A stretch of DNA of 64,000 nucleotides, taken from the NCBI GenBank assembly GCA_040756435.1, contig JBFLZD010000007.1:18099-82098 (forward strand), in the 5' to 3' direction. This DNA comes from Spirochaetota bacterium (GTDB taxonomy: Bacteria > Spirochaetota > UBA4802 > UB4802). Below, piece by piece: positions 6,335 through 50,510 of the stretch. How positions within the stretch are numbered: position 1 is the first letter of the stretch; the number at the start of each line of letters is the position of its first letter. Below the pieces are notes generated by a model. That model was given only the letters and a program-made list of their open reading frames with translations, searched no databases and was not told where the DNA came from. Made by a program: the position numbers and the translations under genes.

Positions 6335-6517
6335 TTGAGCAATAATAGTATAACAAGTAAATCAATTTTTTCAATACCTTTTTATAGTATTTTAAAACAA
6401 TCAGTCACAATGATATATGCCATAATCAATACCCTTAGTATCACTATATTAGTTTCAATAATAATACTATGTAAATCATTAATTATTCCTAAATGTTTAA
6501 ATTTGAATAAAATATAA
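6335..6517 (+). CDS. Possible small hydrophobic protein (60 aa); its 3' end lies in the conserved 45-nt repeat leader and is followed by a GC-rich hairpin
   Basis: ORF with two hydrophobic segments, followed immediately by a terminator-like hairpin at 6523-6560. It may instead be a non-coding transcript. Confidence 0.25.
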   Translation: MSNNSITSKSIFSIPFYSILKQSVTMIYAIINTLSITILVSIIILCKSLIIPKCLNLNKI

Positions 6518-6560
6518 AATAGTGTACACCCCCGCCGCCTAAGGCGGCGAGGATGTACAC
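6463..6560. repeat. Repeat element A: conserved 45-nt leader (aattattcctaaatgtttaaatttgaataaaatataaaatagt) + GC-rich hairpin GTACACCCCCGCCGCC-taa-GGCGGCGAGGATGTACA followed by a T-run
   Basis: The leader is near-identical to 50283-50326. The hairpin is near-identical to 44734-44772. GC content departs strongly from the AT-rich background. Confidence 0.8.
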
Positions 6561-6664
6561 TTTATTCTTTATGAAATTTTTTAAGTAATTATTACTGTAT
6601 GTAAATTATTTTTTTAGCTAAGCACATCCATAATTCCTAACGTTTATAAAAGAATGAAGTTATT

Positions 6665-20216: not shown

Positions 20217-20987
20217 TTACTTTTTTTGAGCTATCCGTTTAACCTGATAGGTTTTAAAGGCATTGATATTATAATTCATTTTACAGTATTCTTCTATTTC
20301 AGGGTGGATTGTATATCCAACCATAAATCCAATTACATCTGATTGCAAATATACTCTAAGCCTCTCAAGCATTTTTGCAAATCTATCTATATCCCGTTTA
20401 CCAGGTTGAGCCTTACATTCACCAATAATATATACATCCTTATCATTTTTTACAGCTTTAACATAAATATTAACTTCGTCATACTTGCCACTATCATATT
20501 GTATGTATTTTCTTTCTACCTCCTTAGCTTCTGCACCATATTGATTATAAACAAAATTTTCAATATACGGTATCAAATTATCCTCAATCCCATAGCCTAC
20601 AACCATTGACAATCCACCTACCTGCTTTTTTAAATCATCAACAGTCAAAATGAGATTTTTCAAAACATCTTCTGTCCTTTTCTGTGCTTCTGCTAATTCC
20701 TCAACACGCTGCTCTGTCCTCTTCTGTGCTTCTGCTAATTCCTCAACACGCTGCTCTGTCCTCTTTTGCGCTTCTGCTAATTCCTCAACACGCTGCTCTG
20801 TCCTCCTTTGTGCTTCTGACAGCTCAACTACATTTTCAGTTAACACACGAAATTCTTCTTTAGTTACTGATTGATTGATTTCATTATATATTTTTATTAG
20901 AAGATTGGTCAATACAGTAGCTTCTTTCTCGCCAAAGGTTTCTTTTAAATTTTGATAAATTTCAAACGTATTAATCATTCCCAACAC
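20217..20987 (-). CDS. Coiled-coil tandem-repeat protein with C-terminal PD-(D/E)XK nuclease-like domain; function unknown
   Basis: Three perfect 14-aa repeats ([14 protein letters not shown]) encoded by 42-bp DNA tandem repeats. C-terminal YDEVNIY...[10 protein letters not shown] fits a D...(D/E)xK restriction-endonuclease-fold motif. Confidence 0.5.
20665..20830. repeat. 42-bp tandem direct repeat x ~3.3 (unit gcttctgctaattcctcaacacgctgctctgtcctcttctgt) inside the coiled-coil gene
   Basis: Near-perfect copies at 20686-20727, 20728-20769 and 20770-20811, plus partial flanking copies. Confidence 0.9.
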
Positions 20988-42700: not shown

Positions 42701-44647
42701 CTACTTTTTAAACAACTCGTTAATTTCTTTTTCAAAATTTTTCATGATGATATTACGCTTGACCTTAAGAGTTGGAGTCATTTCCCCGGTTGCCTCAGTA
42801 AACTTCCTGTTTATTATCACATATTTTTTTACTCTTTCATACTCTTCAAGTTCCCTGTTTGCTAACTGGATATCCTCATCAACCAATTTTTTCAGCTTTT
42901 CATTCTCAATAAAATCCTCCCCAACACCAACACACATCCTGGCCGCACCCTCGCCAAAGAATACCAGTTTTGATTTATCGTATGGTATTCCTTCTTTATC
43001 AAACATTTCAATAAAAACATCAAATTTAGGAACAACCAGCGCGCCAACAAATGGCCTGTCATCAGCTATTGGGAATACAATATCAACATATCGTGATACA
43101 GAAAATAAACTTTCTATCTTTGCAGCAGGGACGTTTTTACCAGTATCCAGAACCATTATCCCTTTTTTCCTGTCTACAATTTTGATATATCCATCAGGCC
43201 CCATCTGAACTACATCACCGGTTTTATAAAAACCATCTTCAGTAAAAGCCTCTTTTGTTGCTTCAGGATTATTCCAGTAATTCAGGAATATATTGTCACC
43301 ACGCACCTGCCATTCGCCATCACTTGCCACACGCCCTTCTACACCATTGCACACCGGCCCTACATAGCCAGGCAACACTTTATGTGGCAGGTTCAGATTA
43401 ACAGTATTACAGGTTTCAGTAGCACCATACCCTTCATAAATCCTGACCCCCATGGCCATAAATACCTTGCATAAATCTGCAGGCAAGCTACCCGCTGCTG
43501 AAAATGCAAATCTGAATCTGCCGCCCAATTTTTCACGTACCTTGCTGAAGACAAGCTTATCAACCAATTTGTATTTAAATGCCAGCCACCTGCCAACACC
43601 TTCTGTAAAATCAATTCCTTCGGACATATCAACAAATCCATTTTCATCTGCACGGGCTTCTGTGAGTTGTAATCCGGTTTTAATTGCAAAATCAAAGATT
43701 TTCTTCTTGATTGGTGATTTTGCTGCCATATCACGCATTGCCATAAAAATGCGCTCATATATTCTTGGAACCGACATAAAAACCGTTGGCCTGAAAATTT
43801 GTAAATCTTCAACCAACGTCATTGGCGACGAGTATGCAATGGTTGCAGCAGCCATCATAGCGGTACCGTGACCACATTCTCTTTCATACGTATGCGCAAG
43901 TGGTAAAAATGAAAGTAACACATCATCTTCACGATATTCCGGAACAATACGCAAATCCCTGCAGCATGCTGCATTGATACTGAAATGAGTGTGTACAGCA
44001 CCTTTTTGCCTTCCAGTGGTGCCTGATGTATACACAATAGTCATTGGGTCAAGTATGTTAACCGATCTCCATCGTCGCTCATACGCAAGCTTATCTTCAG
44101 CCAACAGTTTAATTCCTAAATCCCTTACCTGTTGTAGCGTTATAATACGTGAATCATTGCCTTTGTACTCATCTTTCAGTATGATGATTTTTTCCAGTGT
44201 TGGCATTTCCTGTATTGCACTCAGAGCTCGTGATAAAATTTCTTCATCCTGCACATATAAAATTTTAGATCCGGAATCATTGATAATAAAACTCATTTCT
44301 TTTGCTGAAAGTGTTGGATATACACACACCGTAATGCCACCAGCGCATAGTATTGAATAATCAGCCCATAACCACTGTGGCGCTGTATGAGAAGCTATTG
44401 CAACGCGATCACCTTTTTCAACTCCTAAGCTCATAAGGCCAGCAGTTAACTGTTTTACTATAATTCCTAACTCTGCGTAGGTTATGGATGTTGTAGTGTT
44501 TGGACCAGTTTTCCACCATTGTGCACGCCGGGTACCAAACCGTATTGCATTCCTGTTCAGCAATTCAGGGAATGTCAGTTGTTTTATATACCACTTATGT
44601 ATCATAAAAGCCCCCTTGTAATTAATAAGAAAATCCGAAAAATACAT
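42701..44647 (-). CDS. Long-chain-fatty-acid--CoA ligase (AMP-binding family)
   Basis: AMP-binding signature YTSGTTGRQKGAVHTH, plus GYGATE and DRKKGIMV motifs. Length 648 aa. Confidence 0.9.
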   Translation of the reverse strand: MYFSDFLINYKGAFMIHKWYIKQLTFPELLNRNAIRFGTRRAQWWKTGPNTTTSITYAELGIIVKQLTAGLMSLGVEKGDRVAIASHTAPQWLWADYSILCAGGITVCVYPTLSAKEMSFIINDSGSKILYVQDEEILSRALSAIQEMPTLEKIIILKDEYKGNDSRIITLQQVRDLGIKLLAEDKLAYERRWRSVNILDPMTIVYTSGTTGRQKGAVHTHFSINAACCRDLRIVPEYREDDVLLSFLPLAHTYERECGHGTAMMAAATIAYSSPMTLVEDLQIFRPTVFMSVPRIYERIFMAMRDMAAKSPIKKKIFDFAIKTGLQLTEARADENGFVDMSEGIDFTEGVGRWLAFKYKLVDKLVFSKVREKLGGRFRFAFSAAGSLPADLCKVFMAMGVRIYEGYGATETCNTVNLNLPHKVLPGYVGPVCNGVEGRVASDGEWQVRGDNIFLNYWNNPEATKEAFTEDGFYKTGDVVQMGPDGYIKIVDRKKGIMVLDTGKNVPAAKIESLFSVSRYVDIVFPIADDRPFVGALVVPKFDVFIEMFDKEGIPYDKSKLVFFGEGAARMCVGVGEDFIENEKLKKLVDEDIQLANRELEEYERVKKYVIINRKFTEATGEMTPTLKVKRNIIMKNFEKEINELFKK

Positions 44648-44733
44648 AGCATATTTTATTACAATATTATATTAATTTGTATATGTCAAGTTGAATATTA
44701 TAAATGTTGTTTTAAACAATAAAATATAATATA

Positions 44734-44772
44734 CTGTATACCCCCGCCGCCGAAGGCGGCGGGGGTATACAG
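44734..44772. terminator. Repeat element A': perfect 18-bp GC-rich hairpin CTGTATACCCCCGCCGCC-gaa-GGCGGCGGGGGTATACAG, T/A-runs both sides; bidirectional terminator downstream of fliE
   Basis: Perfect palindrome. Same GCGGCG core as element A at 6523-6560. Confidence 0.8.
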
Positions 44773-44845
44773 TATTTTATATTTTGTTCAAATTTCCATA
44801 TTTAGGAATAATTAATGAAAAATTATGGTAACAATGCATCATTCT

Positions 44846-45355: not shown

Positions 45356-45820
45356 TTATACGCCACCTCTGCCAATTTCCAGTGCCTTTGAAAACATCGA
45401 TTTGGCATTGTTAATCATCATTACATTGGCTTCATACGAACGTGATGCAGATATTAAATCAGTCATTTCCATAACCACGTTTACGTTTGGCATTTCAACA
45501 TATCCCTGCTTTGGTCCTGTTTTAATTGCATCGGGATGTGACGGGTCATATACAAGCCTGAATTCTGAATTATCATCTTCTATCTTTACAACCCGTACGC
45601 CTTTTGGCTCACCATGATCTATACGTTTGGGAACCAATGGGGATTTATAAAATGGCCTTATATTGACTGGTGCAAATATCACCCGTTTGCGTTTATACGG
45701 TCCACCTTCAGGTGTGCGTGTGGTTGTTGCATTGGCAATATTATTGCTGATAACATCCATCCGCAATCGCTGAGCGGTTAATCCGGTAGATGCTATGTTG
45801 AAGCTATCAAACATTCCCAT
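45356..45820 (-). CDS. flgC: Flagellar basal-body rod protein FlgC
   Basis: N-terminal rod-protein motif (ASTGLTAQRLRMDVISNNIANATTTRT) and C-terminal SRSYEANV rod motif. Confidence 0.85.
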   Translation of the reverse strand: MGMFDSFNIASTGLTAQRLRMDVISNNIANATTTRTPEGGPYKRKRVIFAPVNIRPFYKSPLVPKRIDHGEPKGVRVVKIEDDNSEFRLVYDPSHPDAIKTGPKQGYVEMPNVNVVMEMTDLISASRSYEANVMMINNAKSMFSKALEIGRGGV

Positions 45821-45834
45821 ATAATGTTACCTCA

Positions 45835-46293
45835 CTATACTGTTCTCATTACCATTTTTAACATTTTATAATTCTCATTTAAACTTGTTACGTATGCATT
45901 ATATCTCATTTGATTTTTTGCCGCATCAACCATCTCTTTTTCTACATCCACATTGTTGCCATCATTTCGGTATGTGGTTGTATAATCTAAATTAACACGA
46001 GGTTGTACGCTGGTTATATCTTTTGGTTCAAAGAAATCGTAATGTCGAGGATCAGTTTTAAGGGCTTTAACATTCTTCATTGGATCCATATTATGAGCTA
46101 TTGCCCTTTTTAACTCACTTTCAAAATTAACCTCACTGCGCTTAAAATGGGGCACATCTACATTAGCAATATTGTTGGCTATCACCTTACGGCGCAATGA
46201 CTCAACATCTAACGCCTTTTCAAGTAGATAATTGGTTTGCATCATTTTGCTGTATTCAAACATTCTGACATACCTCGTGCTATTCGTTTCCAT
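45835..46293 (-). CDS. flgB: Flagellar basal-body rod protein FlgB (true start probably an internal Met)
   Basis: IANNIANVDVPHFKRSEV rod-protein N-domain and C-terminal AAKNQMRYNAYVTSLN. First gene of the flgB-flgC-fliE cluster. Confidence 0.75.
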   Translation of the reverse strand: METNSTRYVRMFEYSKMMQTNYLLEKALDVESLRRKVIANNIANVDVPHFKRSEVNFESELKRAIAHNMDPMKNVKALKTDPRHYDFFEPKDITSVQPRVNLDYTTTYRNDGNNVDVEKEMVDAAKNQMRYNAYVTSLNENYKMLKMVMRTV

Positions 46294-46355
46294 TTAGTGT
46301 ATCGGCATATTGCAAAAAAGCTTTATTATATTTTTTGTGACATAATCGTATTACC

Positions 46356-46453
46356 CTCTTCCAAGATTGTTGGGAAACCTTATCCATTAATAAGTGATTT
46401 CTCACTCTTTCCGGATTGTTGGGAAACCTTATCCATCATAAAGTGATTTGATT
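46356..46453. repeat. 49-nt tandem direct repeat x2 (core gattgttgggaaaccttatccatYaWaaagtgattt) upstream of flgB
   Basis: Copies at 46365-46400 and 46414-46449 with 34/36 identity. Confidence 0.85.
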
Positions 46454-47176
46454 TCTTTAAGATTGAACTGTTGAATTATCTTCAACCTGAAATATTCATA
46501 ATCTTTATATCCACAGGCCATTTACGGTATGACTATTTTAGTATTTATCCCTTCCGCAAAGCTATTTGAAATTTTCGCGCAATGAATTCCTGATATACTG
46601 TTTCCATTTTTCAATCTGCCTTCCAAATTTTGCCAGCTCCGGTATTTGGATCAATTTCATTATCTCGTTACAATAAGATTTATAAGCATTTTAAACAACA
46701 ACCACCGTGTCTCTTTATACAATCATCTATTCTCGTTGCCAGACCTTTTTAACCTCCCGAATTCGTAATTTATCAATAGTTTTTAAAAAGTGCTGTGTTA
46801 GATGAAAATGATCAAAGCATATTATTTTATCAAATACTGATAAATCTTCAACTTAGTGGTAACGCCTATTTTTCATTTTGTTCAGGAAAGCTTTCCCTCT
46901 TTTTGGATACTCTGAATATCCTTCTCTCTCTACCGTTAAAATAATATTTTTCCCCGTCATGCTATTTCCTTGACAAAACAGCCGTACAGTTCTACTAATT
47001 CTGTTAGTAAGTCCAATCTCATCTCACTTTTTTTAGATTTTTTTTGTGGTAAAAAAAGCATCTTAAAATCTATGATGTGATTAGTTACTATTTTCTTTTC
47101 ATAATATTCAATTTTTTGAAATAATACAGAATGAGTTCAAATATTTAAAACTATTTATACAAGGTTACCATACATC

Positions 47177-47746
47177 ATGACACATAAATATGATCCCACA
47201 CATGCCCATCATCTTGACAGTCTTTTCAGGCGGTTGATGTATCCACCAGTCAAAATTCTTAAGCACATTGGATTGCAACCTGATGACATTTTCTGTGATA
47301 TTGGTGCTGGCACAGGATTTTTCTCCATACCTGCGTCAGGATTACTTCCAAAAGGTAAAGTTATTGCAGTTGACATCCAGCCAGCCATGATTCAGTTACT
47401 ATCGCAAAAAATAATGGATTTGCACATTAATAACATTGAGACTGTAGTTTCCACTGAAAATGATCTATTGCTTCCACAAGAATCTATCACTTTTGCATTT
47501 ATGAGCTTTGTGTTACATGAAGTTGAAAACAAAGAGCAGATGCTTTGTACTATTTATAATGCATTGCGCTCTGATGGGAAAATTGCAATCATAGAATTTT
47601 CTAAAAAAGCACTTTTTGGCCCACCCAAACATGAACGTATTTCTGAAAATGAAATAAAGAAATTACTTGAAAACGCAGGATTCAATGATATTTCTTTGGA
47701 GAAATATAATTTTTTTGCTTACCTGGCAAAAGCAAGAAAATTGTGA
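47177..47746 (+). CDS. Class I SAM-dependent methyltransferase
   Basis: Motif I DIGAGTGFFS and post-I acidic residue (VIAVD). Length 189 aa. Confidence 0.8.
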   Translation: MTHKYDPTHAHHLDSLFRRLMYPPVKILKHIGLQPDDIFCDIGAGTGFFSIPASGLLPKGKVIAVDIQPAMIQLLSQKIMDLHINNIETVVSTENDLLLPQESITFAFMSFVLHEVENKEQMLCTIYNALRSDGKIAIIEFSKKALFGPPKHERISENEIKKLLENAGFNDISLEKYNFFAYLAKARKL

Positions 47747-50244: not shown

Positions 50245-50282
50245 ATATTTGTCAAGAATTTTATATCTTTATCTGGATTTTT

Positions 50283-50510
50283 TTACAATAATTATCCCTA
50301 AAATGTGGAAATTTGAATAAAATATAAAATAGTATACCCGGGGGTGTCCCAAAACAATCCGTGGAGTTCTCAATGACGCGGGTGCAAAGTCATTGCGTGC
50401 GTAGCGAAGCAATCTAAATAGCACAGAAGACAAGATTGCTTCGTCACTTCGTTCCTCGCAATGACAGTATGGCAAAAGTCATTGCAGAAGGTGTCTTTTG
50501 GGACACCCCC
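50283..50510. repeat. Repeat element B: conserved 45-nt leader + 171-nt MITE-like element with perfect 15-bp terminal inverted repeats (GGGGGTGTCCCAAAA ... TTTTGGGACACCCCC) and internal GTCATTGCGAG-type nested palindromes
   Basis: TIRs at 50340-50354 and 50496-50510. The internal hairpin gcgaagcaatc...gattgcttcg. The leader 50283-50326 matches 6463-6520. ORF 50269-50475 (-) is a spurious translation of this element. Confidence 0.8.

Follow-up and report, generated by a model that had tools for sequence, protein, structure and literature searches.

A decayed ISL3-family insertion sequence with a doubled right end between flgB and a divergent methyltransferase gene in a spirochaete genome

The non-coding DNA between the flgB-flgC-fliE operon and a divergent methyltransferase gene is a dead, internally deleted relic of an ISL3-family insertion sequence (IS), and the 49-nt tandem repeat found there consists of two head-to-tail copies of the IS right end. 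Evidence from the window (the whole 64-kb stretch of DNA analysed) and from related contigs leaves us highly confident in an overall reading in which the element decayed in place, carries a doubled right end and is inert today. The relic probably has no present-day function; a minor transcriptional influence on flgB or on the methyltransferase gene is possible today. As ordinary genomic debris the relic holds nothing surprising to a specialist, and its value is one of annotation: the gap upstream of flgB is to be read as a pseudogenised ISL3-family element and not as regulatory RNA or operator DNA, and a putative flgB promoter, with a motif of the sigma-28 type, can be placed next to it. The analysis also documents a multi-copy ISL3-family lineage, with MITEs, in uncultured Leptospirales and other spirochaete MAGs, where it breaks assemblies, and it provides a small case of strain-level polymorphism at an IS end.

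Three statements of the earlier note on this DNA hold: that flgB, flgC and fliE form an operon on the minus strand (identities confirmed by Pfam), that the longest ORF-free stretch lies upstream of flgB, and that this stretch contains a tandem repeat. No credible ORF is present in the stretch, and the gap between flgB and the methyltransferase gene is the window's largest between ORFs of at least 100 aa. The single ORF of at least 60 aa that touches 46294-47176 is a 69-aa plus-strand frame at 46237-46446, which overlaps flgB and which we take to be spurious. The 142-aa FlgB is on record as an exact sequence, and the same start is called in relatives. A 152-aa FlgB starting at 46293 was considered and rejected; no such sequence is on record, gene calls in relatives start at 46263, and the conservation of a sigma-28-type motif at 46300-46325 in every relative makes the longer ORF implausible. 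Because FlgB starts at 46263 and not at 46293, the non-coding stretch is corrected to 46264-47176 (913 nt). Base composition pointed to a decayed minus-strand gene, as 46300-47000 has a GC content of ~0.33 and negative GC and AT skews, like the adjacent minus-strand genes and unlike an AT-rich spacer.

The repeat is made up of two 45-nt units (46356-46400 and 46405-46449) that a repeat search found to be 87% identical, differing at 6 of 45 aligned positions (13%), with starts 49 nt apart. A 23-nt core, GATTGTTGGGAAACCTTATCCAT, has two matches and no more in the 64 kb (46365 and 46414), where 100 shuffles give an expectation of 0.00. The 49-nt repeat was missed by Tandem Repeats Finder but detected by the general repeat search and by a motif search.

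Six-frame translation of the region yields transposase-like fragments. Two minus-strand frames match the Pfam family DDE_Tnp_ISL3 (PF01610) in colinear order, at profile positions 79-114 and 206-240, and a stitched translation of the relic has 13 homologous proteins, all of them carrying PF01610 (best E = 3.8e-32). An intact 1354-nt element of the family (L019) encodes a 404-aa transposase with Zn_ribbon_ISL3, HTH_Tnp_ISL3 and DDE_Tnp_ISL3 domains. The pseudogene map in Table 1 is defined by tblastn of this 404-aa protein against the window, which places residues 1-66 and 227-404 on 47022-46432; blastn of the relic against the intact copies L013, L019 and L015 gives the same segment map. The pseudogene has at least six in-frame stops, at least two frameshifts, an internal deletion of 160 codons and additional deletions. 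Loss of residues 67-226 takes out the HTH domain and, judged by position within the Pfam domain, would also have removed the first two catalytic Asp. Relative to the intact element 46% of the length is lost, and 594 nt of pseudogene are kept. Of the options raised in the earlier note, a decayed gene was thus the correct one, in the form of an ISL3-family transposase pseudogene with flanking IS ends. Comparison of the region with the rest of the 64 kb by blastn and tblastx found no other copies of the IS.

Table 1. Features of the IS relic and of the neighbouring genes (window coordinates)
Feature	Position	Strand	Basis or remark
Whole IS relic, 735 nt	46403..47137	-	Intact copies 1348-1354 nt
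ISL3-family transposase pseudogene, N-terminus MRLDLLTELVELYGCFVKEI, C-terminus ...EIKSLYDG and stop	46429..47022	-	Pfam, tblastn, blastn
Transposase residues 1-25	47022-46948	-	True N-terminus
Transposase residues 25-66	46951-46826	-	Past a frameshift
Transposase residues 67-226	absent		Deletion junction 46826/46825
Transposase residues 227 to about 356	46825-46571	-	Several gaps
Transposase residues 351-404	46602-46432	-	Stop codon 46429-46431
Distal (resident, decayed) right-end unit: K-S-L-I-N-G, stop, degenerate right inverted repeat ending CTTGGAAGAGGG	46354..46400	-	
Extra 49-nt unit: K-S-L-Y-D-G, stop, proximal IRR, linker	46401..46449	-	Absent from L074
Proximal right inverted repeat (IRR), plus strand CACTCTTTCCGGATTGTTGGGAAACC	46403..46428	-	Intact, abuts stop codon
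Decayed left inverted repeat (IRL), reverse complement AACTCATTCTGTATTATTTCAAAAAA	47112..47137	-	Likeness to L013
IS leader hairpin remnant	47015..47082	-	RNAalifold, 4 relatives and window
flgB CDS, 142 aa, start MFEYSK..., first gene of flgB-flgC-fliE	45835..46263	-	Pfam Flg_bb_rod
Sigma-28 (FliA)-type promoter motif (putative), TAAAG-N14-GCCGATA, flgB operon	46300..46325	-	Consensus match and conservation
Class-I SAM methyltransferase gene, divergent from flgB	47177..47746	+	Pfam

ISL3-family ISs encode a DDE_Tnp_ISL3 transposase, usually with an N-terminal zinc ribbon and HTH, and are bounded by terminal inverted repeats of roughly 15-40 bp that start with GG and by an 8-bp direct target duplication; examples include ISL3, IS1165, IS31831 and IS1411/ISPpu12. 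Intact relatives of the relic share the three-domain transposase, a length of ~1.35 kb, inverted repeats of ~25 bp starting GGCTC, 8-bp target duplications and AT-rich insertion sites. The window copy, in contrast, is dead, with its catalytic region deleted, its IRL eroded and its right end doubled. An AT-rich target preference has been reported for IS31831 in a study that groups it with ISL3-family-like elements (PMC1590026).

The limits of the relic were drawn by comparison with these family members. The IRR of the window copy was assigned because all 16 of the family right ends collected share one layout, in which GA(T/C)GGAT(A/G)(A/G), containing the stop codon, is followed by ~8 nt, by CCCAA...CCGGAA(A/T)GAGT(G/T) and then by unrelated AT-rich flanks; the tip CCGGAAAGAGTG (one variant, CCGGAATGAGTT) is common to the 16. 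The left inverted repeat of L014, GGCTCTTTCCGGATTGTTGGGAAA, has 22 nt that are identical to the plus strand of the window at 46405-46426. At the other end the IRL agrees with the left inverted repeat of L013, GGCTCATTCCGGATTATTGGGAAAAG, at 18 of 26 positions (own count), and lies inside a 333-nt blastn alignment with L013 that is 74% identical (E = 6e-48). Each end of the relatives carries the repeat GGCTC(A/T)TTCCGGA(A/T)T(G/A)TTGGGAAA, the two copies being inverted with respect to each other. The complete copy L015, with ends GGCTCATTCCGGAATGTTGGGA and its inverted partner, is flanked by an exact 8-bp target duplication (TTTAATTT), and exact 8-bp duplications also flank L029 (ATATTCTT), L068 (AAAAATTC) and L072 (TATTATAT); in L035 the match is 7 of 8. 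No 8-bp target duplication is recognisable at the window relic with either right end; one flank reads AATATTTG and the opposite one AGAAATCA or TAATACGA.

The IS family is multi-copy and mobile, with the same ends recurring at unrelated loci and with sites that are occupied in some genomes and empty in others. The inverted-repeat pattern was found in 56 stretches among GTDB genome contigs, at least 13 of them in one MAG and many at contig ends, and nearly all in uncultured Leptospirales, Leptospiraceae or other spirochaete MAGs; the window's own locus is absent among the 56. This distribution would suggest an uncultured Leptospirales-like spirochaete as the source of the window. Family members comprise the intact copies of 1348-1354 nt and MITE derivatives of 288-332 nt, with ends in inverted orientation. 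Both inverted repeats are kept in the MITEs (L029, L032, L034, L035, L068, L069 and L072), all of which come from MAGs of uncultured Leptospirales or other spirochaetes, and several of them have 8-bp duplications, either exact or matching at 7 of 8 positions. The window element is likewise an internal-deletion derivative, but it keeps its 594-nt pseudogene, has a decayed IRL and sits at a single locus (in the window, L005 and L074). Found at one locus only, it shows no sign of ever having been mobilised as a MITE.

The window, L005 and L074 all carry the relic at this site; L001, L003 and L004 have none there. The closest relic-free relatives have a FlgC identical to that of the window and flgB-fliE DNA that is 92-95% identical, and the promoter DNA, that is the 53-54 nt between flgB and the homology boundary, is ~91-96% identical. 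In L001, L003 and L004 homology to the window sets in a few bases beyond the distal IS tip, at 46346/46347. L003 and L004 have a methyltransferase orthologue ~178 nt from flgB and no IS, and L001 (94.5% identical) lacks window positions 46348-47425, a segment made up of the relic and the initial 249 nt of the methyltransferase gene (L001:3047-3081). L001 keeps only a 73-aa ORF in place of the 3′ part of the methyltransferase gene, and the segment it lacks is bounded on one side by the outer tip of the distal IS end.

Each unit of the 49-nt repeat is the last 47 nt of the IS (seven C-terminal codons of the transposase, a stop and then the right inverted repeat), and 2 nt lie between the units. 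What the earlier note had listed as the first copy is the distal unit, and its second copy is the extra, proximal unit. The proximal unit reads AAA TCA CTT TAT GAT GGA TAA and then the IRR, and the distal unit reads AAA TCA CTT ATT AAT GGA TAA and then the degenerate right inverted repeat. Read on the plus strand, the extra unit consists of a 2-nt AG linker (46401-46402), the IRR (46403-46428), the stop (46429-46431) and the K-S-L-Y-D-G codons. Against the right-end consensus of the family (47 positions), the proximal unit shows one difference and the distal unit six, four of these six falling within the nearly invariant 12-nt tip.

The metagenome contig L074, which is 97.5% identical to window 50467-44728 (over 5.7 kb), carries this relic at the identical position, deletions and eroded IRL included, together with a single unit, which is of the distal type and contiguous with the relic body. 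The window differs from L074 by one clean 49-nt insertion (46401-46449) and by four substitutions in the adjoining 12 nt (46450-46461), at three of which the window agrees with an L011-type subfamily. Since L074 has one unit and the window has two, the repeat is a strain-level polymorphism between one right end and two. The extra unit most probably originated in a second and younger member of this IS family. Replication slippage of the relic's own right end, with the copies diverging later and no second IS involved, is less likely than such an origin and on the whole seems unlikely. Slippage would account for the exact head-to-tail layout and the 49-nt spacing, and there are short A-rich microhomologies at the unit boundaries. 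However, the units are 13% apart (6/45) while the strains differ by only about 1.5-2.5%, the extra unit is nearer to the family consensus than the resident unit (1 versus 6 differences), and it comes with the four substitutions in the adjoining 12 nt, of which three agree with the L011-type subfamily.

The following history would fit an element that decayed in place. An ISL3-family IS would have entered the short, AT-rich DNA that separates the flgB operon from the divergent methyltransferase gene, with its transposase oriented in the same way as flgB and its insertion point immediately upstream of the -35 in the sigma-28-type promoter of flgB. A 480-nt in-frame deletion would then have taken the HTH and (by Pfam position) the first two catalytic Asp, and later deletions, stops, frameshifts and erosion of the IRL would have left the inert 735-nt relic. 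The distal unit is the relic's own decayed end, and the proximal unit, which is of consensus grade and present only in the window strain, would have been copied or recombined from the second, younger IS copy, either through nested insertion and later recombination with the old relic body or through templated repair running off the end of the donor. We infer both this order of events and the origin of the extra unit. A simple nested insertion was rejected; it predicts the flank TTAAATCA after the IS tip where AGAAATCA is observed, and the AG linker misfits a target duplication. No donor for the extra unit was found.

We give little credence to two further suggestions, that the extra end is more than debris and records a templated-repair or end-capture event, or that the doubled end and the relic feed transcription into flgB or the methyltransferase gene. 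If the first were true, a break in the dead IS would have been mended from a live copy, with synthesis running off the donor tip; if the second were true, read-through or a hybrid promoter would lead to strain-level variation in flagellar expression.

A related and similarly improbable explanation is that the relic has been co-opted, with internal promoter-like sites directed into flgB or with the IRL giving the -35 of a hybrid methyltransferase promoter. The minus strand has sigma-70-like matches at 46851-46824 and 47149-47121, and no terminator-like site is predicted between the relic and flgB, so that read-through from the relic into flgB is possible. On the other side, the methyltransferase gene starts just 39 nt past the IRL, which leaves only those 39 nt of native DNA upstream of its start codon, and the plus strand carries TTGAAA (47116-47121) followed after 18 nt by AATATT (47140-47145). 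Yet the promoter-like sites are not above the shuffled expectation (8 versus 5.7 +/- 2.6), and close relatives keep both genes without the relic. The plus-strand candidate at 47116-47145, which would place its -35 in the decayed IRL and its -10 in native DNA, is speculative.

The promoter of flgB probably lies in native DNA beside the relic. Sigma-28 (FliA/SigD) promoters have the consensus -35 TAAA, an N15 spacer and -10 GCCGATAA, and the flagellar promoters of this class are resembled by TAAAG-N14-GCCGATAC near flgB. The pattern TAAA-N14-16-GCCGATA has a single match in the window, where 0.15 matches would be expected by chance, and the motif is kept in L001, L003 and L004 and more loosely in L002, being the sole upstream part that is conserved in relatives. 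It lies outside the repeat, ~37 nt upstream of the flgB start codon. We infer from the consensus that this candidate is a flgB promoter of the sigma-28 type, and its position would make the flgB leader short (~30 nt).

Such a promoter bears on the proposal, made in the earlier note, that the stretch holds a large structured ncRNA. Upstream of flgB in Clostridioides difficile there is a c-di-GMP riboswitch and an invertible flagellar switch, and the window resembles that system in having an unusually long non-coding stretch ahead of a flagellar operon, along with one conserved hairpin at 47015-82. By analogy the region might be a structured ncRNA, a riboswitch or a long flgB leader, a reading that we consider very improbable. 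Scanning both strands of 45800-47700 with Rfam 15 (E <= 10) returned two chance-level matches only (MIR1120 and RT-2), with E = 2.1 and 5.5; their 14.0 and 17.2 bits fall far short of the gathering scores, 40 and 86. Unlike C. difficile, the window has no riboswitch match and no inverted repeats around an invertible segment, and its extra DNA is an IS relic upstream of the promoter and not a 5′ UTR, the conserved motif lying too close to the start codon for a long leader.

The hairpin, for its part, belongs to the IS. In L013 (169-237), L014, L015 (5269-5331), L019 and the window it comprises 25 pairs, eight of which show compensatory changes, and two or three pairs are broken in the window copy. 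In intact relatives the hairpin lies between the IRL and the start codon, and its upstream arm pairs with the start-codon region of the transposase, an arrangement that may have served to occlude translation from read-through transcripts. The chance-level MIR1120 match (47013-47084) coincides with this hairpin and is explained by it.

An equally improbable reading, all but refuted, is that the units are paired operator sites for a flagellar-class regulator at the flgB promoter, since their placement ~30-125 nt upstream of the -35, typical of activator sites, is outweighed by the absence of any unit from relatives (L001-L004) with an identical FlgC and ~91-96% identical promoter DNA, by the single unit in the 97.5%-identical L074 and by the identity of the unit with a transposase C-terminus and IS terminal repeat found at dozens of unrelated loci. 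The earlier note had proposed both such paired regulator sites and duplicated sRNA modules, and neither is supported for units that are an IS 3′ terminus, missing from the relatives and single in L074.

Downstream of the operon there is a second repeat, distinct from the IS, of ~90-110 nt. This palindromic repeat occurs at 44718-44831, 6476-6566 and 50281-50339, and is a near-perfect palindrome with 34-nt arms and a GC-rich tip (CCCCCGCCGCC-GAAG-GGCGGCGGGGG) followed by a T-rich stretch, which gives it a terminator-like look. One copy lies just past the fliE stop codon, and the copy at 50.3 kb, 5.5 kb distant, is partial and inverted. The genes next after fliE in L074 and L001-L004 are fliF-fliG-fliH-fliI-fliJ. 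Homology of the window stops inside the palindromic repeat, beyond which lies an AMP-binding acyl-CoA synthetase gene (42701-44647, minus strand), and tblastn found no FliF to FliJ anywhere in the 64 kb. L005 and L006, which are independent contigs from the strain of the window, break off within the palindromic repeat, at 44772-44774. The fliE downstream junction (44650-44830) reflects either a genuine rearrangement at this repeat or a join (chimera) made in assembly.

Elsewhere in the window, a tandem repeat (20671-20818; 42-nt unit, 3.5 copies, 95% matches) lies inside a 256-aa minus-strand ORF (20217-20987) and would encode a 14-residue protein repeat.
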